Assembly (NCBI GenBank): GCA_003971905.1 | Contig: RSEE01000021.1 | Span: 186,001-250,000 of the forward strand | Direction: 5' to 3' | Length of the DNA: 64,000 nt | Source: Moniliella sp. 'wahieum' | Lineage: Eukaryota | Part shown: piece by piece, positions 775 to 64,000 of the stretch | Position numbering within the stretch: the stretch's first letter is position 1 | How the letters are laid out: every line of letters starts with the position of its first letter | Notes under the pieces: generated by a model | Databases searched by the model: none | Seen by the model: the letters and a program-made list of their open reading frames with translations, nothing else | What the model was told of the DNA's origin: nothing | Made by a program: the position numbers and the translations under genes

Positions 775-3049
775 GATCGATGGATAAGATGTGGGATCAA
801 TGGATCTCTGGCCTCAAGGCGGGTGCGAATCGCTCGGTTCTCGTTCAACGGCCACGAGTACGTGGCTGGACAATGGGACAAAGGGGGTTGGGCAATCGTG
901 AGAGTAGCGAAAGGAAACGAGAGCAAAGAATGAGCAAAGAGAACCGACGGTTTATATACTGACTGGAAGATGTGTATTGATCGGGCGATATATGAACACC
1001 GTTTATGCAGGTCGCTCTCGACATTGGTTTTCGATGTCTTCTGTATCAAATGTGACGTCACAAATGCGATGCATGACTGGCTGGCGGTTGGGGCACTGGG
1101 CGCGCTGATGCGACAGCAACAGGCAACAGCGCCATCGCCTGCATCAGCACAAGGCGTTACCTGGTGCATGAGACACGGTGCTACGCGTTGTACACATTTG
1201 ATCCATGATTAGATTATGTGGTCCTGTCTTGGCGTCAGCTTCGGGATCTAAGCGTCGCATCTTGCCTGCTTAAATCTTAAAGTTCTCTTGAAGGTTCGGC
1301 TTCAAGGCTGAACTTCAGCCTCAGCTTCCGTCCGCCTCCAGGGTTCCCTCTGCTGTGATTAATGATTGGGCATTATGCACTTGCACATTATGTTGTTTGG
1401 AACGAAGCAGGGCAGCAAGAGTACCTACTGATGATGGAGATGATGAGACCTGTGGACCTCGAGGGTAATGCAATCGCACTGGTGTGGTGGTGGCCTAACC
1501 CAAGTCAGCACCGCCTACAGATGAGGAACATCAAGCAGTCATCATGCATCAGTCGCTGCCATGAGGCCTGGGGTCTATAGGCTGCTGCTGCTAAGGTGAC
1601 GCCGGTGACGGGTGACGGATTGCTTGACATGATGCATGATGTATGATGGGACGTGCGACGGCTTGGGGCCGCGTGTTGCGATGCATGGTGTGTAGTATGG
1701 TGGCGCACCCTGGTCCCTACGGTGGCCAGTGCGTGCGAGCTTCATGGAGCTGATAACTGGATTACTCATTACCCAGTACTCATTGCCTCTGCAGGTATGC
1801 AACTCTCAGAACGAGTTTCTGATGGTCATCCGGTCATCGGTCCTCATCGGTCATTAATCATCGACCACCTAACGTCTAACATCGATCAAAGAAGCCACAG
1901 CTGATGGCCTCATAGATCAGCTGGGACGCCGGCTGTCCGGGTGCCTCCTTTGTATGACCGGATGACCCTGGTCCATCCTGTTTGTCTCGATCGCACGTTG
2001 CTCGGGATGCTCGTGGGACTGCATTATCGAAATCTGAGCTGACTAAGACTTGTCTTGGGCAAAGTGGGTGCCACAGGCTGGGAACCCACTAATACACTTT
2101 TTTTCACTTTTTTCACCGTGTTAGTGTTGTGTATAGTGCTGGTAAACACGCAAAAAGCACGCCAGGGAACCCTCTTGACATTCTCACTGTAGCGAGCCAC
2201 TGCTCTGTGTTGGTATCTAGATTGGAAGGACCCGTGACGCGTGAACGTCGTCGCGAACGTTGAATTTGATTGGCATGTTGACGCCCATATCGGTAGAGAC
2301 TCTCGACGTAGAGTTCAACTCGCCTCAGCGAAAAGCACTCGCTTCCATGCCCGGATGCCTGAAGAGACCCAAGGCCCAAAAGGCCTGATGAAGCCCCTGA
2401 GGGCCCAAGCCTGACGGCGCAGAGGACTGGGGCTCTGAGAGTCTGATCTTGCTGAGGGCCTTTATTAGGACTGAGGCGTCCTCTCCTGTGAAGTATTTGT
2501 TGCCTCTAGCTGAGATGCTGAGGAGATTTATATCGGGCTGAGAAGCTGAGGATGCTGAGGAGCCTCCAACTGGAGGGGTGGCTGGGGGGTTGATCTTCGT
2601 CAGCTGGTCACCGGCGCCGGTTACCGGTGAAGGCCCATGCCCTATATTAGGGCTTAGCGCCTAGAAAGCATCTCGGACAGAGTACGATGAATGGCGGGGC
2701 GTCCGAGAGAGACGATGTATCATGGTGAGTAGTAGTACGGTTATCCTGGTGTGGCCTGTGGTGTGGGGCCTGGTCTGCCCCCCTCATCCGTCCATAGTCT
2801 CCGGTCATGCACATGCATTTTGGTCCTGGGACGCTCGAGTCAAAGGCTGCCTGGCAACGTCCTTTTCACTGATCTCGAGAGAGTCACGTACTCGAGTCAC
2901 TCCATGCGTTGGGGGATCAACTAAGAAACAAAGGGACCAACGAAAATCCTCTGAAGAGAGAAAGAAGAGTCAAGGTTGAAACAGGCTAGGAACCGACCCT
3001 GGGGCGGGGGCAAAAGAGGACAGATGTTGGAAGAGACTTTTGCGGGCCA

Positions 3050-3690
3050 AATTACGACGCCCAAGGTGTGGGAGGAAGAGAATATCGAAGGATGCCCACA
3101 TATTCTCCTGTTTGCTATACTCAGAGGGTTGCTGCGGCTGGCTGTGTACCATATATCAGCACAACACCGCGTACACAGTCCACAGCCCCGGATCGGCATT
3201 GTATCAATCAAGCGTTTACAGGACAATAAGCATTGTGATCCATAATGGACACCGGCGATAATATAATGAGCAAGCCTGTACACATACTCATTGTGGCGAC
3301 AGGTGAGAGCTGAGATCTAGCGTGCTCCAATGGTCCGGATTGTATGAGAAGCCCTCACCAACTGCAGTAATGTTTCCAAGGCTGGTTCAAGCGCACGGGG
3401 TGGGTGTCGTGGGCGTGAACCCTGTGGGCACAGCCGTGGTTGTACACCCAGCTGTGGTGTCTGTGGTTCGCCATGATTGCGGTAGCCACAGCATCGACCA
3501 AAGTATACTCCACCACATTCTGGTCAACATCTGCCGAGAGTAGTATTAGTACACCGTCGGTCCGCTGATCGGGCTCGCTCGTTGTGGGGGCAAGAAAACA
3601 TCTACTTCCGATCCATTGGCACGGAAGAAGTGGTATAGGGATGTCGAAGCGATTAATGGGATCATAGAATGTATTGAACTCGTCCATGAC
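3050..3690 (-). pseudogene. Possible degenerate WSC-domain gene relic
   Basis: Minus-strand peptide YIIAGVHYGSQC (~3230-3265) resembles the WSC core (Y.AGVEYG.EC), with a later ICGHP and an upstream Thr/Pro-rich stretch. Intron-like segments are present (TACTAAT..GGCAG; GTAAAC..GCTGAT..ACAG). No continuous frame can be built. Confidence 0.3.
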
Positions 3691-4180
3691 TGCCTCCTAG
3701 GATGATCGGGCCGTCGCTCACAAGACGGCTGCGCACTAAATATAAGGGGGGATGCGTAGCCAGGAGGCGCAGCCGTGCCAGGCTTCGCAGGAACTGACGG
3801 AGGTGGCCAAACCTGGGGAGTGTTTGGCAGAGTAAGATCCATGCCGATAGGTGTATAGGCACCATGATGTCGACCAACTCACAAAAAAAAGTAACGGCCA
3901 TTTCGCAGCCGTTTCCCGCATTTGCCACCCCCAAGAGATTACATGGATCGATGATCGGTGTCGGTGGTCGCGTCTATCGCATCGGACGTAGACGGGAGAA
4001 TTTCCATTATCACAGCTCACCTAGCGCGATTAGTTAGATGACGCGCCTGCCCTGCCAACTCATCTTTGTTGCCCATATACCCTCCTTGCTTCGGATGAGA
4101 CCCGCATGCAATCACAGTTGTCGTTCTTGTCGCTGCGTGCACAAAGGCTCCACAAGACAACACGACAGAGGAACCCCCCG

Positions 4181-8877: not shown

Positions 8878-9553
8878 CGAGTAGCAATCCATTTGTTGTA
8901 CCGCTGCACTCAACCGCACGCGCTCGATGACAATCGTCGAGGTAGGGTAGATCAAAGCCAAATCGGGCCTCAGGATTGCTCTCGAGGGGGGGGGGGCGGG
9001 GTCTCCGAACAGAAGGGACGCTGACAGTGCCCGCTAGGTAGTACCCCCTCCCGTCTACCGTGCAACTGGCAAGACAACGCTCCTGGGAACCCCCCCGTGG
9101 CCCCTTGGGCATTCAGTAGTTCGGAACCAGTACTCAGTCTGAATTTTCAGTCCTGCCACGTCTCCTTCTCCGGCTGCATTTGGGGCCTCGTCTTGCTTGA
9201 CCGCGGTGGCAGTGTAACATAATGCGCAAGGCAACAAGATGTGGTCATTCTCCGGGCCCGCTACACAACGCTAGTTGGATGTGGCGGCAGTGGGCCCGGC
9301 AAAACCCATTCATTAATCATTCCCTGGAGATTTTTTTTGGACTGCCAGCCATGGAATCGTAACATGTAACGAGGTCCCAAGAACGTTCCAACGTTCAACG
9401 TCTCCGTTCAACGTTTCGGCGTTCCGTTCGGCACGGCCTGCGATGTGCCTGTGACACGACACGACACGTTCCGCCTGCTACAGTATGCATTCCCACACGC
9501 GCCGTTCGCTCTTCCTCTTTGCGCCTGGACGCGGTACGTGCCTCGCACCAGTC

Positions 9554-9607
9554 CCAGCGTCCAGCGTCCAGCGTCCTGCGTCCAGCGTCCAGCGTCCAGC
9601 GTCCAGC
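9554..9607 (+). repeat. Heptamer tandem repeat (CCAGCGT)x7
   Basis: Direct reading; one variant unit CCTGCGT plus a partial unit. Confidence 0.95.
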
Positions 9608-9790
9608 TGCGAAGCTCGTAAATGTTCGGATGGACTACGTTGCGTTCCACGATCACGCGTCACGCGTCACGTTTCCCCCCCCGGTGGGCCGTACTACCAA
9701 ACTGCGACACCCAAGCTTGGCTTCCTGTGCGTACTGCGTTGCGTTCCTTCTAGAGTAGCTACCACGCGCCACGAATGGAACGTAGGGCCC

Positions 9791-9844
9791 CCAACGTCCA
9801 ACGTCCAACGTCCAACGTCCAACGTCCAACGCCCAACGTCCAAC
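9791..9844 (+). repeat. Heptamer tandem repeat (CCAACGT)x7
   Basis: Direct reading; one variant unit CCAACGC plus a partial unit. Confidence 0.95.
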
Positions 9845-12533: not shown

Positions 12534-13743
12534 ATTTAGGCGCCGGACAAACGCAGGGCAGCGCAGCGCCAGCCACGGCGCGTGCGAGCAAAGGCGACGC
12601 AGCGCTAATAATAAACCCGCTCCCGTCGCAGCCAGCGGCGCGGGGCAACACTGGCCCGCCGCGGCCTGCAGCCCAGCCGATCAGCCGGGTACTCAGTACT
12701 GCGTGAGGACGACTCAGTCCACGAGTCGGTCGGGCACTCGTCCTCAGGCCTCAGTGGGCACTCGGCACGCCCTCGCCCAGCACGCCGCCCCTCCTCCGTG
12801 CGGCAGCAGCCGCAGCCGCACGCCGCGCGCTCACGCAGTACTCATCGATGAGCCTCATCCACCCGCCACCCGCGCCCTCTCCCTCGCGTCCACGCCCGTA
12901 CATACACCGGCAGCGCTCAACGTGCCACGCTACCACGTCCCCCACCCATCCACCGGCCACCCGCAACGTCCCTCCCTGCCAACGCCCAGCGCCAGCCCCC
13001 ACCACCCACCGCCCAACCCGCTCCTCTCGCCTCGCCTCGCCCTTGCCTGCCTGCTCTCCTCCTCTCGGCCGCGGCTGGCCACAGGGGTGTGATGACATGA
13101 TGGCCAGTGCGCATGGCATCCTGGCGCCAGGGATGGAGCCAGCGTCCGAATTGCAGCGCCAAGCTCCACGCCCCCAGCTGCAGGACGCTCCGCGGGGGCT
13201 GGGTTGTTCATCATGCATCATGCATCATCAATCCGTTTCATCGATCGCATCAGGCCGCCGATTGCCCATGCTCCGTAGTCACCGATCGCATGTCACTAGT
13301 CACTGATCCGCATCATGCATCACGTCAATCACTTGGCAGAACCCAGAATCAGGAATCACCCACACCGACCGAGGCGCACCACTGACTGTACTGGCTGCAG
13401 GGGGCACGCGGCATGGTGCATGACCTGCACGACATGCATGACGCATGACGCATGACGCATGCGGGAGAATATCGGAATGCGCCGCCAGCACATGGCACAT
13501 GGTCTGCATGCGGCAGAAGTTCTGGACAGAACTTCCCCGAGCAGCTGGCGCTGCGCGTTTAGTACTGGGGGGCTGCGGCACATGGCGGCAAATCTTTCAA
13601 GTTGCAGGTGCCACGCTGGCAAATTATGCGTGGGCTGGCACACAACCCCAGACCGCTGCATTCGCATGTCTGTCCGCCATCACATGTCACATGCCGTGTC
13701 ACACCGCTGTGTCACACGTCACAGCCGCCACCCAACCCCCAGC

Positions 13744-13792: not shown

Positions 13793-14729
13793 CGATTGGC
13801 CGATGGTCCATCCAAGCAATATCAGACACGCATTGAGTACTGAACTCCCTCTGCAGTCCCCCCACGCGCCACGCTTCTCCCATGCGTCTCCCATCCGCCG
13901 CCACCGAAAGAAACAAGGCATTCCTGGTACGCGCTCCGCTCGCCTTCCTATCACCAGTCCCAACCATGGCCCCACTCTGTCACATGTCAATGTCACCGCC
14001 GTCTCTCCAGATCCGCCAGGCGCCAGGCCTCTCCCTGCCCCTCCCCTCCGGCCTCGTGTGTCTTCCCCAAGTCTGATCCACCGCCAGCGTCATGCTCACT
14101 GGTCACCGGTCACCGGGGTCACCTAACCGCCGGTCCCGGTCACCGGTCACCACGGCATGCCCAGCTGCAGAACATATAGCCCATCCAATTTATCCGAGAC
14201 TCCCCATTGCGTTGCGTACTTTTTGTTCCCGCGGTGGATACGGAATGCTTCATGCGCTGAGCCACCACAGGCCACTGTGCGGAAAGCCATGCTCAGCTCA
14301 GCCTCAGGTCTCCTCAGTACCTCAGTACTGAGACTCAGTACTCAGTACGGCCTCAGTGCCAACAGAAAGCCATGGTCCCGCCCGGGTCCAACGCCACCCG
14401 TCTCTTCCCCCCCCAAAAACCAGCCATTCAAATCGACCCCCCAAACCACCCCTCGCCCCCCGATTTGCAGCGCCAGATGGTCAGCCTGGCATGTCTTGGC
14501 AGTGGCAGGCCCAGCGCCTACGCGACGCTCTGCCTGCAGCGCCGCCCCAGGTCAACCATGCAGCCAGCCAGCCGAATATTGTTCCGACAGACACCGGAAA
14601 AATAAAAATAAAACACCAGATCGATGCAATGCTTTTTTTTGTGTTCACTACGTTCACATGCGGCCCCCGCGCCACCACGACGGAAATATAATCTCTGCTG
14701 CACGCACCTTTGCACCCCCACGCTGAGGA

Positions 14730-14752
14730 ACCGGTAACCGGTAACCGGTAAC
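14730..14752. repeat. Palindromic heptamer array (ACCGGT-A)x3
   Basis: accggtaaccggtaaccggtaac. Confidence 0.9.
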
Positions 14753-15328: not shown

Positions 15329-15375
15329 TCAAGCTTCAAGCTTCAAGCTTCAAGCTTCAAGCCCCAAGCTTCAAG
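15329..15375. repeat. Palindromic heptamer array (AAGCTT-C)x4 plus degenerate units
   Basis: tcaagcttcaagcttcaagcttcaagcttcaagccccaagcttcaag. Confidence 0.95.
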
Positions 15376-18860: not shown

Positions 18861-21166
18861 CTCCCACCTCTTTTTCCTACAGTGCTGGCACAACCCATCG
18901 GAAAATGTTCGTCTCCGTCGTCGGCCCTCTTCAGACAGGGAGCTTGGCGACATGAATATTGAATGTCAAACCCAAAGTGAGGTAGTGGCGTCCCTTCTCG
19001 GTGACATGCGACATGGAATGCAAGCTTGGCAGAAGGTGGCGGACTGGGGGCCGCGATGGTGTGGGGGCGGGCGGATGGAGCTTCTACAACCTTTCATTGG
19101 GACTTAGTACTTACGCCAGAATGCATTGCTCTGATGCAGGGGAAGCACATTTGTCAGTAACCTGGAAGCTTCAACCTCTTGGTGCAGCCCATCGAGGGCG
19201 ATGGTCGATGGTGGGCGATGGTGGCATGGGCGGTGCCGGTGATGCCGATGATGACGATGACATCAATAGCAGGTGTTGGCTAGACCGCGAGAAGACGGCC
19301 AGGGGCCGGAGGAAGCCGTCGCCCACTGAATGGCTAATGGCGGGCGACGGGGATCGTGCGGACACGGGGATGACCTACTGGCACACCGGTCAGATGCGGG
19401 GCATCGGACGAGCGGGGGGGCAACCGGTTGGCGCGATGCCCGCGCTGAGCGCCGAGGCGCTGAGGGGGCAGGGCAGCTGCCAAGCCTGCATGTCCAGATA
19501 CTGGCCTGGTGCGGGTATGACTGTCTCACAAAGATCTCAGACGGGGCCAGCGCGATGTCGACAGCGCAGTTCGTGAAACCGGCAGAAGGCACCGCGAAAT
19601 TTACAGCGCAGCACCAAGTATGGCGCTGAGCCGCTGCGGCAGTGCCTGAGCGCCCAGGCTGAGCTCGGGCGGCCAAGCGCCCAAGCAGGCGTAAAGTCCA
19701 GCGCCCTCCGCCCGCGTATATCCGCAACGCAAGGCACGGCTGGGCGATGCACAGTGGCGCCGTGCCCCGCATGAGCGCACGGCGGCTGTATTGGTTCTGC
19801 GACAGCTGGCCACACGAACGTCGAACCCTTGTGACAAATACGTAAGGACGCCCCCCGGCACTACGGAGCAACCTCCTCACACACACACCATGTGCCAGCT
19901 GTGCGAGCTGCTTGCAGGCTCTCAGCGTCCTAGGGCCTTCCTTGCCTGCCCATCGACCATCCCCTGCGGCACCCGTGCTATTTGCGCGTGCGCGTGACAG
20001 CTGCTGTGCTGGCTTCCCGGCCCAGCGCCCAGCTCCCAGCACCCCGTTCGCCAGCTTCAATGCTGTACGAAAGCTTGCCAGGTGGACGGTTGGTTGGTCG
20101 GCCTGACCTGCTTCTGGGAGGAGGGAGGAAGTACGTGTACGCCGCCCCTCGAGCCAACACCGCCCTCGCCTGTCTATCTATTATCGACGAACGATAATGG
20201 ATAATCGATCATCGATAATCGAGATAATCGACTATCAGTCCAAGCTATCCAAACCTGACGGGCGGCTTGGTGGGCAGGCAGTTGGCACTGCACTCCTGAG
20301 GCTCAGCGGCTGAGCGCAGCGACCTGCCTGGGCGTGGTGGCGATAGTCGATAGCCGCCAAACCAACCGATATCACCAATCCGGACCAACGTTCGCACGGG
20401 GCTACTGACGGGAAAACGGAGAAGGACGCGGGGTAGGTGGCCGCCGCCCTGCCCCTTCTAGCGCGGCAAGCACCCTGCCTGCTCCGCCGCGTGCGATTGA
20501 GGGGGCGGGCAATCGACCCGTGCCTTGGGCACCGAGCTTGTGTGCGTCGGCGTGGTCGTGGTGCGCCCCCTGGTGCTGCGTCGTCGTCGCGACACGGCGT
20601 GTGTGCCTGCATCTGGGCGCCACGCGTCACACACCCACTCATCGTCGTGCATGCGTCATGCGTCACGCGTCACGGGTGGGCGCTGCTTGGAGGCGGCCTG
20701 GGGCAGCCGGCAGCGCAAAAAGCGCTCTGCGTTCGACAGGAACGGCAGGCAGCCCCAACGCGCCGCCCCCCGCCTGCGCTCGGCAGGCACAGCGGGCGCC
20801 CCTCTGATTTCAGATCTCAGATCTCAGATTGCACGTCTCAGGCTGGGCGCCTGACCTGGGCGCACCACACGCCCCCCACCGCACAAGCCCCGAGGCATGT
20901 ATGGGACAGCGGCGCGGTGCGGCGGAAGAAAAATCCAAGAGGGGCGGAACTGTGCGAAGCGTGGGTTTCGCGCGGCCACACTGCTGCCGTGCCTGCGCTG
21001 GCGCGTGTGGGCGCTGCTCCTCCCCAGTGTGGCTTTGGCTCCTCGGCGCCATATAGCCCGGCTGGGCCTCTGCAGGTGCTCGGTCGCAGCTGTCACCGCC
21101 ACCGCACCACTCTTCCTCCCTCGCCTCCATCGGACCAGAGCGGGCGCTCCTCAGCTCTTCTTCACC

Positions 21167-22996: not shown

Positions 22997-23974
22997 AGAG
23001 CGCACCCCCCCCATCTTTTTGGGTTTGCTGGATACCTGTTTTTGCTTTTTGCTGGGCTTCACCCTGTCTATATATCGCACCAGGCCGTCGGCTTGGCATT
23101 GCTTCTGTCGGCGTTGTGGCCTCGCACCAACTACTTCACCTTCCACATCTTGTACGACTAGAAAAACACAAATTGATGATCGATCAATCGCTTTAATGTT
23201 CCTCCGGCTCTCCTCTCGATGCACGTCGTGTGGTATAGAAAAAACAACCCACTACTAGTAGGATGGGACACGAACCAGATGGTTTTCAGCCCTGGTTCGG
23301 GGTAACCGGTAATTGGGATGGGTTGACTTGCCGCTCGGTTCTGGGGGTTCTTCTTGCATTTGGGAAAGATCATCGCCAATTGGGGCGTACTATATTTATG
23401 TGGAGCACACAGGGAGGAAGTTTCATCCTTCCAATGCACCTTTTCGGGGGTGCTGCATCGGAGAGGGGCAAGCCTGGCTTGTGTGCATGTCAGGTAGCGC
23501 GGATAGACGAGCGGGCGAGTTGGTGATTCGTGAGCCAAGATGAGGGCGAGTGTGCCCAGGGGGCGGAAGGACTTGCCCTGAAAGACACCACGTTGGACCA
23601 GAGCCTCCCTTCTCTCGCTGCAGACCTGGGTGACAGCCAGAGCGCTCGGGCTATGGCGGCCGGTGGATTGGAGGGGGAGCGTCCCTCAGCGGCGCAGCGC
23701 GCACGGCGTCCGACATGGCTACGAAACAGGCGGCACAGGGTGCGGTGGGCTCAGTCAACTTGAACGTTCAATGTTCAATGCGCCCTGGGACAATCGGCCA
23801 CCTGTCACGTGCCCCACTCACACGCCTCGTCCGCCCCCGCCGGCTGGTCCCGGCCCGGCCCGTGCACATCCGGCTGCGCCGTTGAAAAGATGCCCGCTTC
23901 CGGCCGGCCGGAGGCGACCCCACCAGGCGACCCCGCCGTCCTCGCTGCCGCCACCGACCTCGCTATTGCCCCCC

Positions 23975-26362: not shown

Positions 26363-27192
<830 letters not shown>

Positions 27193-37938: not shown

Positions 37939-40329
37939 GGGCGCAAGAAAAGAGAGATAGACAGACAGACGGGGCGGAGGAGGAGGGCCAAGGAGCGTGG
38001 GGCTGGGCGGGATGGAGGAGACGGAGCAGAGGCCAAGGCGGCTGAGAAAAGGACAGGGATGCCGGCGCTATCGATGCTATCGGTGATGCTGATGCGGATG
38101 GCGTCGCACGGCTTGGGCGTGGCGCGTGGCTGTGGCCGGGCAGAGCAGGTGGCTTGTCCAGCCTGTCGCCATCGCTGATCGCTGGCCCTGGCCGTTGATC
38201 GGCAGTGGCGCCGAGGCCTGCACGGGGCGCTGCGCTCTGCTGCCGACGGCTCTGTAACTCGCCAGTGCCCGTCTGCCCAGCCCGACCCCGCGCATCGCAT
38301 TGGACCCGCAGGCCTGCCTAGTGCCTGACGCGTGTCCCGCACCATGCCAGTGTTCCACGCCCTGTGCGATCACACTGCAGCCACCCATCATGCATCTGCA
38401 TCACCATCACGCCGTCAAGCTTCAAGCTTCAAGGTCTCAGGGCACCTCGCCCCTCAAGCTGTCATCATGCATCAGGCTTTAGGAGCTTTAGGCGTCATGC
38501 ATCAGCCACCCTCAGATCCCCACCAGACCTACTTGCGCCTCCAGAGCCTCAGGGACGCCGAGTCAGCTTTGCCAGGGTTTGCCCCTCTTGGGTTTAGAAA
38601 TTCCTCCGAGGACAATATATTGTTTTCGCAGTGCGCGTCGATGTGGTGGAAAAAGGATTCCATTTTCTCGGTTCTTCCTCGTCGGCTCTAGGTGTTCTTC
38701 ATAAGGAAACAGGGTTGCGCCACATGTGCATGACCGTGCGTGACCAAAACTGACCGCAACCAGATGAGACTCCTCTTCCCAACGCACTGAAAGAGCCTTA
38801 TATGAGTAGAAAGTTGGCCATGAAGGAAGAGCACACAACGAGAGAGAGGCGTGAAAAGACAATGTGGGCAGTGAATGGAAGTTGTGGTGGCTCTCATGTT
38901 GTCCCGACAAGGCATCACACGAAGCATAACTATGCACACTAATAAGCACCATTGAAAGGGCCCACAGGAACGAGAGGGCAGTGCCCCCCAACTCCCGCAG
39001 TCTTCCCAAACATAGACCAAAAGCAGCGCGTCGTCGATCTTTACTCTCATTGATTATCATCTGCCCATTCTGCATGTCCTCCGAAGTTCTAATACGGATG
39101 TACATCGGCTTCTTCGAATTTGTTTCATTCCAGGTGCGTTATGGGGCTTTTATTAGACGTCAGGCCTCAGGTAACCGCCTCGGGTACTAATCATATCTCA
39201 ACAGGGTCTTCTTTCTCATCAAAACATAATGCCACAGAGGCATCACTTGGATCTCTCATCATCGCCATGGCGTTTTACTTTCACTCTTTTCCAGAGACTA
39301 ACGGCACAAACTTCTCCCGTTTCTCCAGCAAAATACATTCGGGTCGGTGGCCCAATGCAAACCCAAGGGGGTAACAACTCTTGATAAGCCTTATGTGCCC
39401 CTCTTTGTCAAGGTCTCACGAAAATGGTAGAGTGTAGATCGTTTCTTTTTATCCTGATTCGGAAATGCTGTAGACGACGGGGATAAAAAAGAGGGAGAGA
39501 AGTGTGCTCAAGGCCCCCCAATTTCAGCACCGTCTCCCGGATTTGCATGGAGGGGGTGATGGGGAGACGTGTCTCTCTCAGTGTATATTTTGCCTTCCGT
39601 GTGGATCGCATTCCTTTTCCTGCCTGACCTTCCTCATTATAACTTATACCTCACGAGATGAACGAGGCAAAGCCAGTATGGCTTCTGAATCGCTCCTAGA
39701 AGTATGGTCTATAGGTGGAATAGCAGCTTATTAAGCGGGCCCGGACGTAGGACCCGTCCTTGCCATTTGCGGGGAATTCGATGAGCCTTGGTTGGACGGC
39801 CAATCGGAGCCCACGGGCGTCTTATATATATCTGGCATCTCATCCTGATGGTCAAAGCAACGGTAAGGATAGAAGGGAGGGAGAGGTCCTCTAATGTCAG
39901 TGGGGGCTGCCTGCCACATATGCAAAAAGGTGCACAGTTAAAGTCCTCTGTGTTGGAGAAGGAGTATTAACATGTGAGGGCCAACTACATATATTACCTG
40001 TTGAAAGGATCTAGAAGCTCTGCATCAGCAAAGATCCACTTGTTGTTACCGCGAGTATCGCTCTAGAGTATATATGAAATGGCACAGATTTACACCTAAA
40101 CGGTAGATTCAGGCTACTGACCTGGGGAATCCGCGCCTTGCCGTTCGTGCGAATAGTAAATTTTCGTAAAAAACCGATGCGAAAAGGGTAAGGGTGTGTG
40201 GGGAGAAAAGTCACCAGTGATGAAGGAAGAAAGTGGAAGGGTAATCAAGGTGTTGACCCCGGTATTAGTCACTTGGAAAACCCGGTGGAGACGTGGAAGA
40301 CCATAGCCAGCGAGAGCTTTTCCTAGATC

Positions 40330-40930: not shown

Positions 40931-42869
40931 TCCGCGTCTAGTCCGGCCTCCTAATAGATGCCTCTATACCCAACAAGCCCTACTCTGGCTGCAATCCGTC
41001 ACCTTTTCTCATCATTCTGCCCATCCGGCTCCCTAGGCCAACACTTACTCTCAACCGGATGGAGTCACAGGCAAGTGAACAAGGAAGAAGACCAAGGTCT
41101 AGGCGGAGACGGGAGGATAGAACAGCAAGTTCGGTCGTGGGATGTGGGAGGAAACATCAGGCATCGGACAACAAGGAGCAAGAGTAAGGGGGGAGATAGG
41201 GAGAGCGAGGTATACGATTCCGAATTGGAAATTGGAGCGAGCTGTTCAATCAGTCGAAGGCAATGACAGTCTTTATACAATCTCTACTAAATGGAGGCAA
41301 AGAAATCATAGTCCGTATGCGGACTTCAAGGGTCCTATGTTAGCGCTGCGCAGTCGGTGCACAGTATAAAAAGGGTTCCGCCAAGGCTGGGCGTAATGAA
41401 GCTTGAAGAGGCAGAGGCAGACTCCGCCACTGCCCGCCCTGTTGTATAAGACACTGTGGCCGGAACCCAGTTATGTGTATTGGGTTAAGAACTTGTGGAG
41501 AAGTAATGTAATGAATGAACCTGTATTGGCTTTGGAAACGATCGAAAGGGGGGAGATGAAAGGGTGATAAAACAATGCACCGTATAATTGATTGTACCTA
41601 CTACGGAGGCCCCCGCAACGGTCCCAATATCTCTGCTGGTCTCATTTCATAGCTGGCTGCGCTGAACGCGCTGAGCGCTGGCGATGGATGAGAAAGAAAC
41701 TGCGCTTGGGGGCAGAAAGAAACTGCGCTTGGGGGCGGAGGGGGCGGAGGAGCAAAGACCGTTGGGGGGTACGCACGCGGGTACGTCAACTGTCCAATCC
41801 TACTGAGTACCCAACCATAAAAGTAACGTTACTGGCGTGTGCATGACATCACAGATCTCAGGAAAAGACTTAACCAGTCCGGACTGATCGAGCAAAGGGT
41901 ACTGCTAACGCCTTCGCCAGTCGTGCTAGCGTTGCTTCCGCCTGCTAGTATACGCAGCCCTCCGACGTAGCATCATGTAGCTCTGCGCTCCTCGGCTCGC
42001 GCTCGAGTTGAGCGGCCCCGCCGCGTTGCTCCGCAGCCGTTATTACCCTTTTATTGTCGCTGCTGTCCCACAGGCCGCTCACCAGCTACGCATCGCCGCC
42101 CGCGCGAGCGGCATACCACGAAACACGTAACGCGTAACGACGAAGCGCACTGGGCTGTGCTGTGCCCCAGTGCCAGATGCTCGTACCGCCTCGTACAGCC
42201 CACTTCGAGCAAGGCTCAGCCACTCGTTGTTCCACGTGTTCGCGGACCCGAGCAGCCGAGGCACTGCAGGGCACTGTTCCTGTTCATGCACCGCCACTTG
42301 TATGCGAGGGCGAACAACCTATTCGTGGCTGCCCCGTGCCGGGGAGTATACAATCGCGTGCGGATGGGAGCACTGGGCCGCAGTGGGGGCAAATGGATTT
42401 GAGAGGGTGCTCGCGCTCGCATGTACCTTGCCACAGCGACGGTGTGCGACGGCAGAGATCGCGCGCAGTGCTGCCAGGCGCCTGGGGGCGCTGTGGGTAA
42501 AGACGTGTAGAGGCACTGTCGCGCTGGGCGCTGAGCGTTGACCGGTGACGCGTGACGCCTGAGGCGCTCAGGTGGAGGACAGAGGCAGGCGCGGGCGGGC
42601 TCTGTGCGGGGTTTGTCGTACGAGCCGCCGGCGGCGGGGGCAGGGGGGGGCAGTCGCTGCACCGGCACGGGGACTCCGCCCACGCCTGCTTTCCGCTTGC
42701 ACATCCAGGCATTTGAGGGCAGCAAAAAAACAGTGCGGCACTCTGCACGTGGGCAGTGCGCCTGCAGTGGAGGATGGGAACTGCCCCCGTGCGTGCCCGC
42801 TCCCCCGCCCGCCGCCGACACTGGGCTGGCGCAGCGCCGGTGAACGCCGGCGTGGAAACGGACACTCAG

Positions 42870-42891
42870 TAGTCACTAGTCACTAGTCACT
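42870..42891. repeat. Palindromic heptamer array (ACTAGT-C)n, ~150 bp upstream of the GT32 gene
   Basis: tagtcactagtcactagtcact; the same array recurs at 49307-49329. Confidence 0.9.
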
Positions 42892-47924: not shown

Positions 47925-48430
47925 CGGACTCAGGCTGAGGCTCAGCACTCTCAGCCGCTCAGCACCCGGGCTCAGGCTAAGGCTCGGCGCTGCGCCTCAG
48001 CGTAGTTGCGTTCAGTACGTGCTCAACGTTCTCAACGTTGAAGCCGAGGCCGAGGTCGTGAGGCTCCGGCTCGGGCCGGTTCAGAGTAAGTGATAAGCTG
48101 AACTCAACGTACATAACGCGTAACAGGCGGCCTGAGCTGAGCTCAGGCTCAGCGCTGAGGCTCGGTCGTTCAGTACGAAGTCACTTGGCTTCAGCGCCAG
48201 CGCCAGCGCTCAGCCGGACTCGTACTCACTCCCATCGATCTGGACGTGCAGTACGATGAGTACTGCTCGGTATGAATAAGTCACCGGCCCGTCACCGCCA
48301 AAAGGCTCTTCAAGCTTCAGCCTTCAAGCTTCAGCCTTCAAGCTTCAGAGCTTCAGCGCTCAGGCTCAGCGCTCAGGCTCAGCCCACCTTTTCAGGACTT
48401 CAGCCTGAGATCGATGTTCTCGATGATCGA
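47925..48430. repeat. Dense TGA/TCA quasi-palindromic repeat field
   Basis: ctcaggctgaggctcag, ctgagctgagctcaggctcagcgctgag, (CTTCAAGCTTCAGC)x2+, (AGCGCTCAGGCTC)x2 and atcgatg..cgatgatcgat. Confidence 0.85.
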
Positions 48431-51355
48431 TAGGGATTGATTTGCTGTGGTGAGCGAAAGTAGAGACAAGCGGAGAAGGAAGAGGGAGGGGAAAGGAGTG
48501 GCTTCACTAATGAGATCTGAGAGATGGAAGACGACGCCATGATACATGACAGCCGTGCTTCTAGATGGAGGAGAGTGAGCTGCCTGACTTCCCCTCAGGC
48601 CTCAGGCGGAATCAGCGGGCGCTAGCTGCTGGGTGGATGTGGCTGAGAACGTCAGAGTGTGACTATATGTCGATTATGCTCTTAATTGGCACACTGCGCT
48701 AGTGTCCCACAACACTGCTGTGCTGGTGCTCGGACACATCATTTATGCGGGGCCCACGAGAGGAGACTTACTCTGTGAGAATGCTGAGCACACACATACC
48801 GGAGTATACGACGGGGGTCTTAAAAGCTTCAAGCTTTAAAGTTCGTGTCTGGGTTGAGATCTGTGAAAAGGCCGCGTCTGACAGGCCGCTTTTTTCTCGT
48901 AGCCTGTCTCAAGCTTCAAGATTCGAGCTCCTCAAGCCCCACACCTCACGCTGAGGCGCTGAGGCTGAGACCTCAGCTTCTCATAGAACCTCTTCCCTTC
49001 TGGCTTCATTAAATCTCAGTTGCCCTATACACTAACTAACCTTCCCTCGTGGAGGGTGGTGCTACGTTCCCCTGCACGGCCCTCAGTTATCGGTGACGGC
49101 TGGCGCTAGGCCAGTGCACTGCCCGTGCGTCTGCGCCTTTTCGTTTGTGCTCCATTGTTCGCTTCCCCCCCTGTCTTCTCTCAACGGCTGACGCCGTTTC
49201 CACTCCATACTTCGCTCGCCCTCGATGCTCATGATCCGCGTGATCAGCTGCCTAGCTCGTTCGGTCAGTAGGGGCCATCTGTCTGCAGTCAGCCAGTAGT
49301 CACACTCTAGTCACTAGTCACTAGTCACTGCGCATCAGGGGGTGGCGGGAATTCGACGAGACACATCAATTACAGAACAGAGGGCAAATGGCTGGTGATC
49401 CGGGTGATCCCCGCGATACATGATACGCATGAGATGTGAGTACTGAGTGTTTTGGTTAGCATGGAAAGGGCGTATAGGGAGGAACACCGGTATATAGAGG
49501 GGCATGGATTGCAGGTAATGAAACAGGAATTTTGTAAGGGGACGACGCCTGGTTGTGCACCGAACCGCCAAGTGCATAAGGAGCACAGATACGTCATCTG
49601 CACGTCGTGGTGTAACCGGCGATCCAAGCCTCGCCGCGGGTTGTGAAGTTCTCGCCGATAAGGCAACAGATCACAAGCAAAAAGTCTATGATGTCAGACA
49701 CAACAAATGAGACCCGGTCACAAATGTTACACTTCGAAGCTGTGGCTGCAGCCTCCCCAAACGAAGACATAATGTGTACTCCATTGGCCGTTGTATAGGC
49801 TGATACGCACATAGGTATCCCGAGGGTGGGGGCGGCCACAACTGGAAAGGAACTCCCAGACGGATGAGGCATCGCCTGAAAGTTTGTGGAAGCTGGAGAG
49901 GAGTGGCACTCAGAGCAGAGAAAAGGAGACGACCAGTGGATGCGAAGATAAACTGTGGAACTACTATATCAATGAGTAGAATAGTAGTCGACCAATTCCT
50001 CTGTCGCCAACAGGCGGTGCGGCAGGCGGTGCGAGAGCAATGGAGGCGGTTGACACAACGAGCTTGGCCACGCACCGCATTAGGCACACCACTACTCTCG
50101 CTCACAACGAAAAGCTCATGACAGTGGTGTCTTCGTGTCGATGGCAGGTGTCATATAGTTTGGCTGACCCACTCCCATTTCCTATTTCTTCGTCTCGAGA
50201 GTCTCGCTCCTTCCTGCTTCTTCCACTTCGCACCATGTTCTCTGCTCTTGCTTCTTCCCTACGAACGATTGCTATACCCCTCGGCCTAGTCCCGATTTTG
50301 GTCTCCCTCGCCAAACCCGATTGTGACATTATCGTTCGTCTAACCGTCAACAGGCGAGCCCAACCAGAGATGTCACGATCCACGACAACCCACATGACAG
50401 TAGGCCGTATTAAGAAGCCGGAGTCGGATCAGCCGTATAACAACAGCGGTGGAGGCGCGCGTGCTATGCTGCTCCATCCATGCCCCATAACGATAGTATG
50501 CTTTCCTTCATATACTCTTCACGCCGAGGCCCGCATCATCGGCATCGTCCCTGGCAATATTTGTTGCGCCATGCTGGGAGAGAGTAGTAAAAGATACTGC
50601 TGCATCAAAAGCTGGGATTCAGACTCGGTGAGAGCCCCATCACTCTCTTGACAGTTTACGTGACAACCGAAGCAAAGTGTGCGTACAGGCAGGAAGGAGC
50701 GGAGAGGTGGTGGTAGGTGAGATTGTCTTCGTCTCGGAATCCCCCCCGTTACTACACTCGGCCACTGCAGCAAACCATGACAGCCTGACATTAAGGTTGT
50801 CGACACCCTTCCGCACCCGTTCACGCCTCTATCCACCATTTATCCTCTCAATGATACGTTGATTGCCTTATAGCCATAGCCTGCAGAAAATATGTTGGGA
50901 ATAGTATATTCCCTTTTCTTCCTTCAGTGGGCATTCCGTCATATGCATCATCATGCTGACCATCATTGCTGTTCCACGTTTCGAGCGCGTTCAACGTTCA
51001 GGCAGCTTCAAGCTTCAGCTTCACCAGCTTCACCGAATCAGGGTCTCAGCTATTCATATACACACATGCAAATGGCGCGCAGTGTGTAGGGCGATCAATG
51101 ACTTCGGTCAGTACAAGAAAATCCGAGTGAGTTAATTAGTACATCTGTCAACTGCCATGTACATATGCCCGAAGGAACCAATCATGAAGTGGAATGATCC
51201 GCAGAAGGTAAAATTGGCATGTGGAGAGTCCAGAAATGACATCGGAGAAACAGCTGGAGGCATGAAAAAGCAAGCGGCGAGGCCAGGGATAGTTATCTAT
51301 ACGGGTGAGAAAGAGCAAAAACAAAAAATGGATGAAAGGGGCAGCGGTAAGAAGA

Positions 51356-62119: not shown

Positions 62120-63174
62120 GGCAGCACAGAGGTGTATGGGAGGGAGAGGTGGGCGCGTCTATCGCGGTAAGTGGGGGAATGCATGTATGTTGGTTCGTCG
62201 GGGGTCGCATATATATATGACTGTGTTGCATGTTCACCACCGGTGCATGCGCCCCAGCATGCTAATCCCAGTCCCCATCGCCGCCGGGCCTTCCACGGAG
62301 ACGGGAGTCGGTGGGATGAACCAAGGAGAGTATGTTGGTGTTGGGCGCGGCGGGCAACCGTGGGGGCGAATGGGCGGTAGGGGCCCGGGGATGTGCGGCG
62401 CGGTCAGCGGGCGGCAGCGCAGTCTGGGGCGCAGCGCTGCGCAGTCTGCACTGGCGCACTGTCACAGACAGGACTAACGTTCAAACGTTCAAATCCCCAT
62501 TGCTTGGCATGGGCGGAACGGAGGCTGGAAGCTGGGGCGGCGGGGCGGAAACGCCGCCGAGGAGAGCTGGGGTGTTTCCACCTTGAAGCTTGAAGCTTGA
62601 TTTACCTTGGTTACAGCGCCGCGCTCGCCGGCCTGCAGTGGGGCGGCTGCGCTCGACCGTCTCCCAGTTGTCTGCCGTGCGCATGCCCGACGTCTTCCTG
62701 CCACACGACGGTACGCGGGCTTGTCGTATGAAGGCAATGCAAACCTGTGGCGGCGTCAGCACTTGGGGAAAGGAGTATGAAGCGCGATGCTTGAAGGCGG
62801 TATGGTCTAACGCTTCTCTTTCAACCCTTTATGCATCCTACACACCACAGAACTACCTCAGTGTTTCCTATCCTCAGTTCACCAGGACAGTGTCGATCTC
62901 GATGCTTGAGAGGATAATGCATAGATAAGGCACACGCACCTTGCCGATAGATCGGTTTCTTATCGAATGTGACAGGAATTAGGTCTGCAGCGGTGTGTTT
63001 GCATCTTGTATGAATTTGTAGTTTTGGCGGTTAGGAGCTTGGCAATTGCGTTCACGTGTAGATTGATCGCGAGGTGGTATTGGCCGTCCATCGAGCAAAG
63101 ATTTGGGCAATAGATAAAAATCCACCGCAAAGCAATAACAAACGCAATAGGGGAACAAAGGTCGTCGTCAAGCT

Positions 63175-64000
63175 TCAAGCCCGTCGCTTCTCCAACTGCT
63201 TTTCAATGATTTCGCCCTCAACCTGACGCTCTTCTTCGCGGCGTTTCTCCTCCTCTTCCTCTGAGTCCTTAACGTCCTCTTCGATACCCACCTCGTGCTG
63301 TGAGGTCCAGAGCGACGAGTAGAGCCCCCCGGAGGCAAGAAGCTGGTCATGTGTGCCCTGCTCTAGCACGGTGCCATCCTTAAGGACAAAGATAATATCG
63401 GCATCCGCGATCGTCTTGAGCCGATGGGCAACAAAGAGCGAGGTACGCCGCTGGGTCAACAATGTTTGTCGGATGGAGCGCATCAACTCTGCCTCAGTTT
63501 GGCTGTCGAGCGCAGAGGTGGCCTCGTCAAAGAAGAGGATTTCGGGATTTTTAAGCAACAAGCGGGCAATTGCCAAACGTTGTTTCTCGCCTCCTGAGAT
63601 CATCAGGCCTCGTTCGCCCACTTGGGTCTCGTACCTTTCCGGAAGCTTTTGCACAATCTCATCCAGCTTGGCCCGACGAGAAGCATCGATAACTTCCTCG
63701 TCCGATGCTTCAAGACGGCCATAGCGGATGTTGTGCATAATGTCGTCATGGAACAAAGGCGTATCTTGGGGCACCACACCAATCGCACGGCGGATCGAGG
63801 CTTGACTCACTTCGCGAATGTCCTGCCCATCAATCGTGATCCGACCCGACTGGGGTTCGTAGAATCGGAAGAGAAGTCGGAAAATGGTTGACTTTCCACA
63901 ACCCGAGGGCCCAACAAAGGCCACCTTGCTCCCTGCGGAATGGTAAACGAAGCGCCCTTGAAGATGGGCCGTTCGGGGTGGTAGCCAAACCAAACATTTT
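63175..64000 (-). CDS. ATM1: Mitochondrial ABC half-transporter Atm1 (C-terminal NBD; gene extends beyond window end)
   Basis: GPSGCGKSTIFRLLFRFY, IGVVPQDTPLF, VGERGLMISGGEKQRLAIARLLLKNPEILFFDEATSALD and FVAHRLKTI. Confidence 0.92.
   Translation of the reverse strand, partial: KCLVWLPPRTAHLQGRFVYHSAGSKVAFVGPSGCGKSTIFRLLFRFYEPQSGRITIDGQDIREVSQASIRRAIGVVPQDTPLFHDDIMHNIRYGRLEASDEEVIDASRRAKLDEIVQKLPERYETQVGERGLMISGGEKQRLAIARLLLKNPEILFFDEATSALDSQTEAELMRSIRQTLLTQRRTSLFVAHRLKTIADADIIFVLKDGTVLEQGTHDQLLASGGLYSSLWTSQHEVGIEEDVKDSEEEEEKRREEERQVEGEIIEKQLEKRRA

Follow-up and report, generated by a model that had tools for sequence, protein, structure and literature searches.

Heptanucleotide arrays in noncoding DNA of Moniliella sp. 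'wahieum' share a 12-bp element that may derive from one small insertion

Genes and heptanucleotide arrays in the window

We analyzed a window of 64,000 nt from Moniliella sp. 'wahieum' (GCA_003971905.1, RSEE01000021.1, positions 186,001 to 250,000, forward strand), and all evidence comes from this one 64-kb stretch. It contains eukaryotic genes with an ordinary split structure (ATM1, Arf, SNARE, NPR2, Sam50-like, BCCIP, ThrE, and a permease); Pfam-supported ORFs, which served as the coding set, cover 15.3% of the window. Table 1 lists the repeat arrays and the singleton 12-mers. All 15 positions at which the initial annotation had placed array units carry the unit named there, and all 12 G/C-containing A....T hexamers are present, as it had claimed, as perfect arrays of at least two copies. 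In mixed tracts, TCA was more constant than the core. The CCAGCGT unit at 9554..9607 is one substitution away from the neighboring CCAACGT unit.

Table 1. Repeat arrays, tracts, and singleton 12-mers in the window.
Positions	Strand	Feature	Remark
1356..1367	+	TGATT·AA·TGATT	singleton; all-AT core TTAA
9310..9321	+	TCATT·AA·TCATT	singleton
9382..9415	+	(AACGTTC)n	imperfect, 4.9 copies
9554..9607	+	(CCAGCGT)n	7.7 copies; non-palindromic unit without hairpin potential (fold z +0.98)
9653..9671	+	(TCACGCG)n = ACGCGT-C	19 bp (12+7)
9791..9844	+	(CCAACGT)n	7.7 copies; C-N-A variant, CCA + palindrome ACGT
13209..13228	+	(TCATGCA)n = ATGCAT-C	
13436..13461	+	(GCATGAC)n	TCATGCG on the other strand; fits D5-P2-D5 via palindrome CATG
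14096..14151	+	(TCACCGG)n = ACCGGT-C	imperfect, two perfect blocks
14313..14348	+	(TCAGTAC)n = AGTACT-C	orientation flip at 14321-14332
14729..14752	+	(AACCGGT)n = ACCGGT-A	T-A-A junction
15329..15375	+	(TCAAGCT)n = AAGCTT-C	6.7 copies, 34 bp perfect; DNA fold -7.3 kcal/mol, z -3.2
18953..18964	+	TGAAT·AT·TGAAT	singleton
20810..20829	+	(TCAGATC)n = AGATCT-C	adjoins upstream amino-acid permease ORF (20855-22707 +)
23301..23312	-	TTACC·GG·TTACC	singleton
28680..28691	-	TCACC·GG·TCACC	singleton
30268..30395	+	composite period-8/16 tract (ACTGATGN)	TGATGCA 12-mers interleaved
30590..30760	+	TCA-punctuated mixed tract	TCAAG x5, 2-nt spacers GA, GA, CT, CG, GC; read directly
30797..30825	+	(TTACTAG)n = ACTAGT-T	
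31704..31723	+	(TCATCGA)n = ATCGAT-C	
32145..32158	.	orientation flip, perfect 14-bp palindrome CT·TGA·AG/CT·TCA·AG	minority inverted class
35126..35137	+	TCATC·GA·TCATC	singleton
38415..38433	+	(TCAAGCT)n	19 bp
39160..39171	+	TCAGG·CC·TCAGG	singleton
41397..41408	+	TGAAG·CT·TGAAG	singleton
42870..42891	+	(TCACTAG)n = ACTAGT-C	upstream edge of glycosyltransferase ORF (42873-44363 +)
48308..48383	+	higher-order repeats	14-mer (TCAAGCT·TCAGCCT) x2.9, then 13-mer (TCAGCGC·TCAGGC) x2.4
49307..49329	+	(TCACTAG)n	
49437..49448	+	TGAGT·AC·TGAGT	singleton
62582..62600	-	(TCAAGCT)n	19 bp

Perfect tandem arrays of at least 2p+3 bp (p, period) were compared with 50 dinucleotide shuffles. Period 7 yielded 18 arrays against a mean of 0.02 in the shuffles, bearing out the excess suspected earlier, and the neighboring periods 5, 6, and 8 yielded 6, 10, and 3. 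Perfect 7-bp arrays of 14 bp or more numbered 62; 32 of these consisted exactly of an A....T palindrome plus one nucleotide (A+pal4+T+N), whereas the C....G, G....C, and T....A classes contributed 0, 1, and 0; random 7-mers of the window fall into each class at approximately 3%. The claimed preference for A....T over the other palindromes was thus upheld. In 169 non-seed 7-bp control arrays from 121 metagenome loci, no palindrome class exceeded chance (2/6/5/5), and a 4-bp palindrome was present in 36% of the control arrays versus 74% of those in the window (Fisher P = 2e-7).

TCA-N4-TCA occurred 86 times on the + strand (17 expected), with echoes at 14 and 21 bp, and its core was palindromic in 77 of 129 occurrences on both strands, against 6% by chance; for TTA/TAA-N4-TTA/TAA, the proportion was 15 of 31. 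Direct TNA-pal4-TNA 10-mers numbered 92 (2.1 expected) and inverted ones 12 (2.2 expected). The orientation flips that the initial annotation had called frequent therefore do exist (e.g., 32145-32158), but they form a minority.

The 12-bp element D5·P2·D5

The elementary unit is not the array but a 12-mer, Y-N-A-x-y · y'x' · Y-N-A-x-y, in which a 2-nt spacer, the reverse complement of the repeat's end, lies between the two copies of a 5-nt direct repeat (D5·P2·D5). Maximal runs of period-7 identity around TNA-pal4-TNA, 78 in total versus 2.3 in shuffles, had a sharp mode at 12 bp with 27 runs, which are partly non-independent, since three lie in one 14-mer array (48308-48347) and two in another array (30344-30371). 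Beside the mode, we counted 3 runs at 10 bp, 6 at 11, 10 at 13, 12 at 14, 4 at 15, and 5 at 16; longer runs were 3 at 19 bp, 3 at 20, and 1 each at 22, 23, 24, 29, and 34. In an unbiased survey of all structures D(t)-I(p)-D(t), the combination t=5, p=2 with I the reverse complement of the adjacent end of D stood out (46 versus 4.5 expected), whereas (5,3) occurred once (1.3 expected) and (4,3) 10 times (5.3 expected). The spacer was not palindromic in 65 of 111 (5,2) structures, indicating that the filler is not always templated.

The logo of D for these 46 elements, on which Y-N-A was not imposed, had T, C, G, and A at position 1 in 28, 13, 3, and 2 elements and A at position 3 in 31 of 46, with positions 2, 4, and 5 free. 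Where position 3 was A, the left and right bases were TT in 111 cases, CC in 19, CT in 11, and TC in 6, and the left base was a purine in only 11 of 162. A pyrimidine is accordingly required and duplicated, which identifies the structure as D5+P2 and not D4+P3. The flanks of 30 YNA elements had no base preference.

Perfect YNA 12-mers occupied 130 positions in 79 clusters, versus 1.2 positions in shuffles, and the excess of 12-mers over shuffles ranged from about 10-fold to more than 100-fold. Only 2 of the 79 clusters fell within Pfam-supported ORFs (P = 2e-4); the absence from coding sequence reported earlier is a near-absence and holds for those ORFs only. The C-N-A variant (CCA + pal4) accounted for 14 of the 79 clusters, and the central N was C or G in 66, with strand asymmetry. 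As many as 15 of the 16 possible cores were used, and their usage tracked the availability of YNAxy sites (Spearman 0.56). The initial annotation had seen no arrays with all-AT cores; this was mistaken, because TTAA was found in 3 clusters, ATAT in 1, and AATT in 1 (TATA in 0), although such cores were rarer than expected (5 versus 13.4).

A recurrent 7-nt insertion as candidate origin

We lean, with moderate confidence, toward attributing the repeat grammar to a single type of small, stereotyped insertion that has occurred again and again across the noncoding DNA of this genome. Judging from the structure of the 12-mers, each probably arose by insertion into a single YNAxy site. The target would be the 5-mer Y-N-A-x-y (T being commoner than C as Y; N, x, and y unconstrained), to which 7 nt would be added, first the 2-nt reverse complement of x-y and then a second copy of the 5-mer, yielding the 12-bp product YNAxy·y'x'·YNAxy. 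With this filler, the 4-bp core xyy'x' is palindromic by construction, and A at position 3 together with T at position 1 of the next copy extends it to an A....T hexamer, so that hexamer and T-N-A junction follow automatically from one 7-nt insertion. The base N is the single-nucleotide spacer and is repeated directly, which is why TCA is followed by TCA and not TGA; 5 and 2 nt give period 7, and each insertion recreates its own target, allowing growth in steps of 7. Growth may proceed by ordinary slippage or by repetition of the same event, point substitution would produce near-grammar arrays such as CCAGCGT, and frameshifting +7 products would be removed from coding sequence by selection.

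Two causes appear most economical. One is a brief polymerase switch and return in the course of replication or repair (four-point type 4-3-2-1), in which the reverse-complement segment would measure 2 nt and the back-step 5 nt. Alternatively, both ends of a 5-nt staggered break might be filled in, one of them gaining 2 palindromic nt via hairpin opening or turn-around synthesis. The initial annotation had envisaged fold-back or template-switch synthesis or hairpin-repair footprints at T-N-A sites. The small reverse-complement part at T-N-A fits such a process; extended iterated fold-back is unsupported, because copying in inverted orientation hardly goes beyond 2 nt and the window has no general excess of palindromes. 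A point against the insertion model is that a return with 1-nt or zero microhomology after a 2-nt switch is mechanistically unexplained, and we know of no polymerase or nuclease documented to behave in this way.

The 12-mers could also be a ground state left by contraction of longer arrays, given that length modulo 7 is conserved under slippage. This moves the question to the birth of arrays without removing it. Runs of 14, 15, and 16 bp (12, 4, and 5) exceeded the roughly 5, 2, and 0.5 given by a geometric estimate of chance extension of 12-mers, and 6 of 12 exact 14-mers were in the symmetric register y'x'TNAxy; together these suggest that a whole 7-mer may be duplicated in some events.

Alternative explanations and known systems

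It is possible, though unlikely, that the elements are footprints of cut-and-paste transposons, with 5-bp target-site duplications (TSDs) at YNAxy and hairpin-capped flanks, one of them cut open 2 nt from its tip to give P nucleotides, in a reaction of the hAT, Transib, or V(D)J type and with transposons few or elsewhere in the genome. In formal terms, D5·P2·D5 equals a TSD with 2 P nucleotides added, a direct repeat without flank homology is expected from staggered-cut fill-in, Artemis-type hairpin opening typically adds 2 P nucleotides, and the non-templated spacers (65 of 111) resemble N nucleotides. However, no pair of terminal inverted repeats with a 5-bp TSD was found among the outermost pairs of at least 10 bp in the window, the longest TSD being 4 bp and in chance-like numbers; dispersed repeats of at least 30 bp were absent from the window except for the arrays and three short similarities; and the 300 longest ORFs contained no transposase, integrase, or reverse transcriptase domain. 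Hairpins would be expected on both flanks, whereas the logo places P nucleotides on the x-y side only, and end-joining footprints usually vary, whereas p=2 prevails here and p=3 does not occur. We know of no superfamily that pairs a 5-bp TSD with a Y-N-A target.

Quite improbable, in our judgment, is an origin as ordinary heptanucleotide microsatellites, in which slippage duplications arise at random and self-complementary units expand or persist better through slipped-strand hairpins. Arrays do gain steps of 7 (19- and 20-bp runs), the higher-order 13- and 14-mers represent slippage of larger units, the (TCAAGCT)n strand has a more stable fold than shuffled versions (z -3.2), and heptamers are common elsewhere, with exact (TCAAGCT)4 in more than 121 metagenome contigs. 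Nevertheless, the rule is present below two copies, at the 12-bp mode, before slippage acts, and it is absent from the control arrays, supporting the earlier argument that slippage alone does not account for the shared period, symmetry, and T-N-A junction. Two-copy arrays were as grammatical as long ones (21 of 44 at 14-16 bp versus 11 of 18 at 17 bp or more), and neither the 7-bp controls nor palindromes generally in the window showed palindrome enrichment. Moreover, hairpin stability would favor G/C beside the mismatch, yet A....T made up 32 of 33 palindromic units. Array growth was independent of hairpin potential: z-scores of grammar arrays ranged from -0.3 to -3.2, and neither of the two longest arrays is a full palindrome, one of them lacking any fold (z +0.98).

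Selection on cis-elements, with TCA/TGA half-sites at 7-bp spacing or TGA-N4-TCA dyads bound by regulatory or chromatin proteins in promoters or UTRs, is very unlikely. It would suit the intergenic clustering, the position of some arrays directly upstream of ORFs (20810-20829, permease; 42870-42891, glycosyltransferase), the steadiness of TCA in mixed tracts, and the strand-asymmetric C or G at N. The protein reading TGA-N4-TCA that had been offered as an alternative is not supported, because inverted dyads were at the expected level (TGA-N4-TCA, 14 versus 17; TCA-N4-TGA, 17 versus 16). Use of 15 of 16 cores roughly by site availability is needless for a sequence-specific protein, elements also occur downstream of genes (e.g., 62582, 63168, 50988), and binding selection leaves the reverse-complement filler and the sharp 12-bp mode unexplained. 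A sequencing, amplification, or assembly artefact is hardly credible: no close relative is in the protein database (best matches, ATM1 at 65-72% identity and glycosyltransferase at 46%), but the genes are normal and their ORFs are avoided by the elements, as would not be expected of an artefact, and so precise a rule and target preference would be unlike polymerase or basecaller errors.

The insertion model also bears comparison with known systems. In hAT and Transib footprints and RAG V(D)J coding joints, a target duplication flanks a few nucleotides that are reverse complementary to the adjacent flank, P being typically 2 nt. The window shares the direct duplication around such a 2-nt segment, but it contains no donor element or transposase, and its P nucleotides are one-sided and its product uniform. 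A canonical Tc1/mariner-type footprint, such as TA-C(A/T)G-TA, is likewise a 7-bp odd palindrome with an ambiguous center, a fixed target, and stereotyped repair; there, however, the constant part comes from the transposon ends and TA target, whereas here T-N-A is constant, the arms vary, and 5 nt are repeated. Cyanobacterial STRR heptamers belong to the heptanucleotide tandem repeats of bacteria.

These bacterial repeats, which also include G-rich heptamers (PMC4692102), resemble our arrays in being intergenic and commoner than neighboring periods. They comprise a few fixed units per genome and are not known to follow a palindrome-plus-T-N-A rule, whereas the window is eukaryotic. For Ustilago maydis, the initial annotation had suggested intergenic TCACGAA/TCGTGAA tracts of similar geometry; a full-text literature search returned only unrelated matches and no paper on intergenic heptamer tandem repeats in Ustilago. 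Polymerase theta is, to our knowledge, absent from most fungi. Synthesis-dependent microhomology-mediated end joining (SD-MMEJ) and polymerase-theta templated insertions, as summarized in PMC2943611 and PMC5728401, leave junctions with short inserts copied nearby, both direct and inverted, as here. Those models call for flanking primer repeats or microhomology, whereas the flanks here are unconstrained. The products of SD-MMEJ are heterogeneous.

Short template-switch mutations arise when a growing strand departs from its template, is extended by reverse-complement copying of a short neighboring stretch, and then goes back (four-point model; Loytynoja & Goldman 2017, PMC5453318). The event proposed here can be written as type 4-3-2-1 of that model as outlined there. 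It differs in its 2-nt reverse-complement segment, its return always 5 nt upstream, its Y-N-A target, its density of more than one event per kb, and its seeding of tandem arrays. The insertion has the look of a trace left by a hitherto undescribed mutation process in which microsatellites are seeded.

Period-7 arrays and the T-N-A junction

The initial annotation described many intergenic arrays as obeying one rule, a 7-bp unit made of a palindromic hexamer of the form A....T plus one nucleotide, joined at T-N-A, and the named unit was present at every position for which it gave one. Here, all statistics cover the 64-kb window alone (G+C ~57%). With perfect tandem arrays required to span 2p+3 bp or more for period p, period 7 gave 18, whereas 50 shuffles that preserve dinucleotides averaged 0.02; periods 5, 6 and 8 were all below it (6, 10 and 3 arrays, respectively). 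TRF and exact-run scans yielded 62 perfect 7-bp arrays of 14 bp or more, in which a short unit is repeated head to tail, as in microsatellites. Exactly 'A + 4-bp palindrome + T + N' was found in 32 of these 62, whereas the C....G, G....C and T....A classes contributed 0, 1 and 0 (random 7-mers of the window, ~3% per class); the excesses of period 7 and of A....T over the other palindrome classes were thus both seen against controls. On the + strand, 86 TCA trinucleotides were followed by another TCA 7 bp later, where 17 would be expected, and the signal echoed at 14 and 21 bp; for TGA after TGA, the corresponding count was 43 (15 expected). Counting both strands, 77 of 129 TCA-N4-TCA cores were palindromic (chance, 6%); TTA/TAA-N4-TTA/TAA had the top observed/expected ratio among trinucleotides (9.4), with palindromic cores in 15 of 31. 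The shuffles, class counts and TCA recurrence establish the shared period, symmetry and T-N-A junction as genuine, at levels far beyond chance. Cores composed only of A and T, which had not been noticed initially, are under-represented (5 against 13.4) yet present.

To separate this rule from heptamer repeats in general, we used as negative controls, not as relatives, the metagenome contigs carrying the exact 28-bp seed (TCAAGCT)4, which occurs in >121 contigs of G+C 0.29 to 0.68 from many environments. None of these contigs showed the rule. A....T accounted for only 1–2 of their non-seed palindromic arrays, and their 169 other perfect 7-bp arrays fell into the palindrome classes as 2, 6, 5 and 5, none above chance. 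Any 4-bp palindrome was present in 36% of control 7-bp arrays, equal to random 7-mers, versus 74% (46/62) in the window (Fisher P = 2e-7). Because the control arrays lack palindrome enrichment, the rule is a property of this genome. At the metagenome loci themselves, period-7 arrays exceeded those of periods 5, 6 and 8, a count biased by the seed.

The elementary 12-mer

We measured the extent of period-7 identity around each TNA-pal4-TNA, where pal4 is the 4-bp palindromic core. The 78 runs (2.3 in shuffles) had a sharp mode at 12 bp, with 27 runs, of which five lie within two higher-order arrays and hence are not independent. Lengths of 10, 11, 13, 14, 15 and 16 bp were represented by 3, 6, 10, 12, 4 and 5 runs, 19 and 20 bp (12+7 and 13+7) by three each, and 22, 23, 24, 29 and 34 bp by one each; runs of 21 and 28 bp were absent. 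At period 7, a run of 12 bp amounts to two direct copies of a 5-mer with 2 nt between them; here the intervening dinucleotide is the reverse complement of the one that ends the 5-mer, as in TGAAG·CT·TGAAG, TCACC·GG·TCACC and TAATT·AA·TAATT. We write this unit D5·P2·D5, or Y-N-A-x-y · y'x' · Y-N-A-x-y. In a survey of all repeat and spacer lengths with no motif imposed, a 5-nt repeat with a 2-nt reverse-complement spacer, (5,2), stood out at 46 against 4.5 expected, compared with 1 against 1.3 for (5,3) and 10 against 5.3 for (4,3).

Within these 46 elements, D5 opened with T (28), C (13), G (3) or A (2), had A as its third base in 31, and was free at positions 2, 4 and 5; the flanks of 30 elements (−9..0 and 13..22) were without constraint. 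Where position 3 is A, the left and right position-1 bases were T,T in 111 cases, C,C in 19, C,T in 11 and T,C in 6. The left copy carried a purine there in only 11 of 162, so the pyrimidine is part of the duplicated 5-mer. A 4-nt repeat followed by three inverted nucleotides, in which the left base would be free, is ruled out by this base matrix. Were a symmetric T-N-A cut with a 7-bp stagger responsible, the outer bases should be arbitrary and the smallest products 14 bp long; the array and run-length data rule this out. Similarly, a PIF/Harbinger-like footprint, in which a 3-bp duplication of TNA would be joined to 2 nt left by each end of the transposon, predicts 10-bp runs and few fixed cores, against the observed 12-bp mode and 15 cores.

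The 12-mer yields each element of the rule. Because P2 is the reverse complement of x-y, the core xyy'x' must be palindromic; the A before it and the T after it make the A....T hexamer; N is the additional base and is hence repeated directly; and the period is 7 because 5 and 2 are added. It also follows that direct TNA...TNA is enriched (92 against 2.1) and the inverted form, which exists as the initial annotation had observed for flips of orientation, is a minority (12 against 2.2). Likewise, D5·P2·D5 implies no excess of TGA-N4-TCA. A protein reading that sequence, that is, a dyad-symmetric transcription-factor site, had been suggested as an alternative and should give an excess of inverted half-sites; in the window, TGA-N4-TCA numbered 14 against 17 expected and TCA-N4-TGA 17 against 16, which does not support this candidate. 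Nor does the unit enrich palindromes generally, and no such excess was seen in the window (arm 3, 801 against 747; arm 4, 178 against 197; arm 5, 43 against 47). Outside perfect arrays, as the unit predicts, only A....T hexamers (271 against 173±15 in shuffles) and T-N-A-centred odd palindromes (262 against 188±15) were above shuffles.

A C-N-A variant makes up 14 of 79 clusters of the 12-mer, and this minority accounts for the CCAACGT array at 9791-9844; the adjoining CCAGCGT array differs from it by one substitution, and TCATGCG arrays fit the D5·P2·D5 rule through the palindrome CATG. Runs of 14–16 bp were commoner than predicted from chance extension, 6 of 12 exact 14-mers had a symmetric register, and the spacer was non-palindromic in 65 of 111 (5,2) structures. 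Read directly, 30627-30663 contains the 5-mer TCAAG five times with the 2-nt spacers GA, GA, CT, CG and GC, the filler being less constant than the 5-mer.

Distribution, growth and decay

Perfect Y-N-A 12-mers formed 79 clusters and filled 130 positions, where 1.2 were expected. Forms with one violation numbered 160 against 22, a count inflated by windows at array edges, and those with two violations 477 against 229; the excess at all three levels is consistent with continual birth and decay of 12-mers. Fifteen of 16 possible cores were used, and core usage tracked the availability of YNAxy, the proposed 5-mer target (Spearman 0.56).

The fraction of arrays following the rule was alike in those of 14–16 bp (21/44) and in longer ones (11/18), and neither of the two longest arrays (7.7 copies each) is a full palindrome. 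In addition, predicted single-strand folds were weak or no better than shuffles (z = −3.2, −0.3, −1.2, −3.9 and +1.0). These three observations indicate that array growth is independent of hairpins and that the palindrome is a feature of array birth. Replication slippage, as in an ordinary microsatellite, fits growth in +7 steps, but slippage alone, which the initial annotation had already judged insufficient, does not explain the origin of the arrays, because the rule is present in 12-mers below two copies and missing from control arrays. Higher-order repeats of 13- and 14-mers occur at 48308-48383.

Pfam matches on ORF fragments identified split eukaryotic genes in the window (see the table), and Rfam and tRNA scans of the window gave no match. 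The ATM1 exon has 65–72% identity to fungal proteins, and for the glycosyltransferase ORF the one named match is from Tilletia indica (weak, E = 6e-10); such distant matches point to a sparsely sampled fungal lineage, probably basidiomycete. Pfam-supported ORFs served as the coding proxy, since GC3, tried first, had no discriminating power. They cover 15.3% of the window and hold 2 of the 79 clusters (P = 2e-4), one of them at the upstream margin of its ORF; avoidance therefore holds for Pfam-supported ORFs, the initial annotation having noticed no arrays inside CDS. As a +7 insertion shifts the frame, selection alone would be expected to give such avoidance.

Protein-coding features of the window supported by Pfam
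Feature	Coordinates	Strand	Basis
MFS transporter	3-434	-	Pfam
Longin/synaptobrevin SNARE	4184-4867	-	Pfam
NPR2, several exons	6062-7596	+	Pfam
Amino-acid permease, at least 3 frames	20855-22707	+	Pfam
Arf	26366-27343	-	Pfam
Omp85/Sam50-like protein	33911-34591	+	Pfam
DXD glycosyltransferase	42873-44363	+	Pfam
ThrE	51412-53096	-	Pfam
BCCIP	58549-59543	-	Pfam
ATM1-type ABC transporter	63178-63999	-	Pfam

The T-N-A centre was asymmetric across the window: of the 79 clusters read on the + strand, 52 had a pyrimidine there and 27 a purine (C 45 against G 21, binomial P = 0.004), most strongly at 8000-16000 (18:3) and 48000-56000 (9:2). Background YYA/YRA availability fails to explain this asymmetry, which may stem from the polarity of replication or transcription. 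TCA and TGA orientations showed no significant local coherence in a runs test (38 against 36.5).

Other repeats were also noted. At 30268-30395, a period-8/16 array, its unit being ACTGATG and one variable base, is interleaved with 12-mers of TGATGCA and indicates that TGA-anchored units of other lengths exist too. A perfect 23-bp tandem duplication at 41691-41736 (AGAAAGAAACTGCGCTTGGGGGC, two copies) lies outside the heptamer rule. A G-rich block at 12064-12533 with period 10–14 repeats, for example TGGCTGGTGC (4.8 copies) and TGGGGGTGGTGCTGG (3.2 copies), lies within overlapping long ORFs on both strands and is possibly a low-complexity coding region. Short dispersed similarities (40333-40428 with 59534-59625; 18250-18281 with 40664-40695; 28166-28203 with 40686-40723, inverted) are 32–59 nt long with 75–88% identity, are not heptamer arrays and had no Rfam or tRNA match; they might be fragments of a paralogous gene or a small repeat family.

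Candidate causes and biological meaning

We infer from the sequence that D5·P2·D5 arose when 7 nt were inserted into one YNAxy, an event for which two causes would be economical. A polymerase may make a short switch and return (a 4-3-2-1 event), copying a 2-nt reverse-complement segment and restarting 5 nt upstream. This notation is that of the four-point model of Loytynoja and Goldman (PMC5453318), in which two outer fragments collinear with the reference enclose a middle one that reverse-complements adjacent sequence. The filler here complements the end of D5 in this way in 46 of 111 (5,2) structures, against 4.5 expected. Alternatively, a 5-nt staggered break may be filled in at both ends, one end also gaining two palindromic nucleotides through off-centre hairpin opening or turn-around synthesis.

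In its classical transposon version, the staggered-break route would leave these elements as excision footprints of TIR transposons, and a duplicated target around palindromic nucleotides is indeed what D5·P2·D5 presents (46 against 4.5), the duplicated 5-mer including the pyrimidine. This version is weakened by several observations: no TIR pair with a 5-bp duplication and no dispersed repeats besides the arrays and short similarities were found in the 64-kb window, no transposase, integrase or reverse-transcriptase domain was found among its 300 longest ORFs, the palindromic nucleotides derive from just one side, and the product shows unusual uniformity. Templated insertion of the SD-MMEJ or polymerase-theta type (PMC2943611, PMC5728401) requires microhomology in the flanks; the unconstrained flanks of the 30 elements contain no primer repeats or microhomology to explain the junction, which does not support this candidate. 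STRR-like bacterial or cyanobacterial heptamers, which are prokaryotic and use few fixed units, do not match the split eukaryotic genes and at least 15 different cores seen here.

A bolder reading of the 7-nt insertion, which we regard as rather unlikely, is that the genome hosts an active, sequence-targeted process inserting a self-templated module at Y-N-A, through a hairpin-forming nuclease (e.g., a domesticated transposase) or strand-polar polymerase behaviour in replication or repair. Such a process would be self-propagating because each insertion rebuilds its own target, on both strands. If so, non-coding DNA throughout the genome would have a process dedicated to generating microsatellites and 6-bp palindromes de novo. 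The insertion rate would then be ~1–2% of the per-base substitution rate, by our steady-state estimate from 79 perfect clusters per 64 kb and loss after about one substitution per 12 bp.

In this one 64-kb window, the initial observation is confirmed and sharpened to what appears to be a specific indel signature. A full-text literature search (heptamer, palindrome, footprint, motif) found no such rule described, in a corpus outside which most subscription journals lie, so novelty is unproven; nor did it turn up the similar 7-bp TCACGAA/TCGTGAA tracts that the initial annotation attributed to Ustilago maydis. Microsatellite birth, unlike expansion, remains poorly understood. Most period-7 arrays in a genome, the excess of one 6-bp palindrome class specific to it and the conserved T-N-A junction all appear here to be explained by a single stereotyped, templated 7-nt insertion. 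If confirmed, this would provide a clean sequence-targeted indel signature, the enzyme for which would be open to genetic search, and a natural case of a self-propagating, sequence-generating process. Practically, the elements would serve as hypervariable markers and would contribute to variation among the promoters and UTRs of this lineage.
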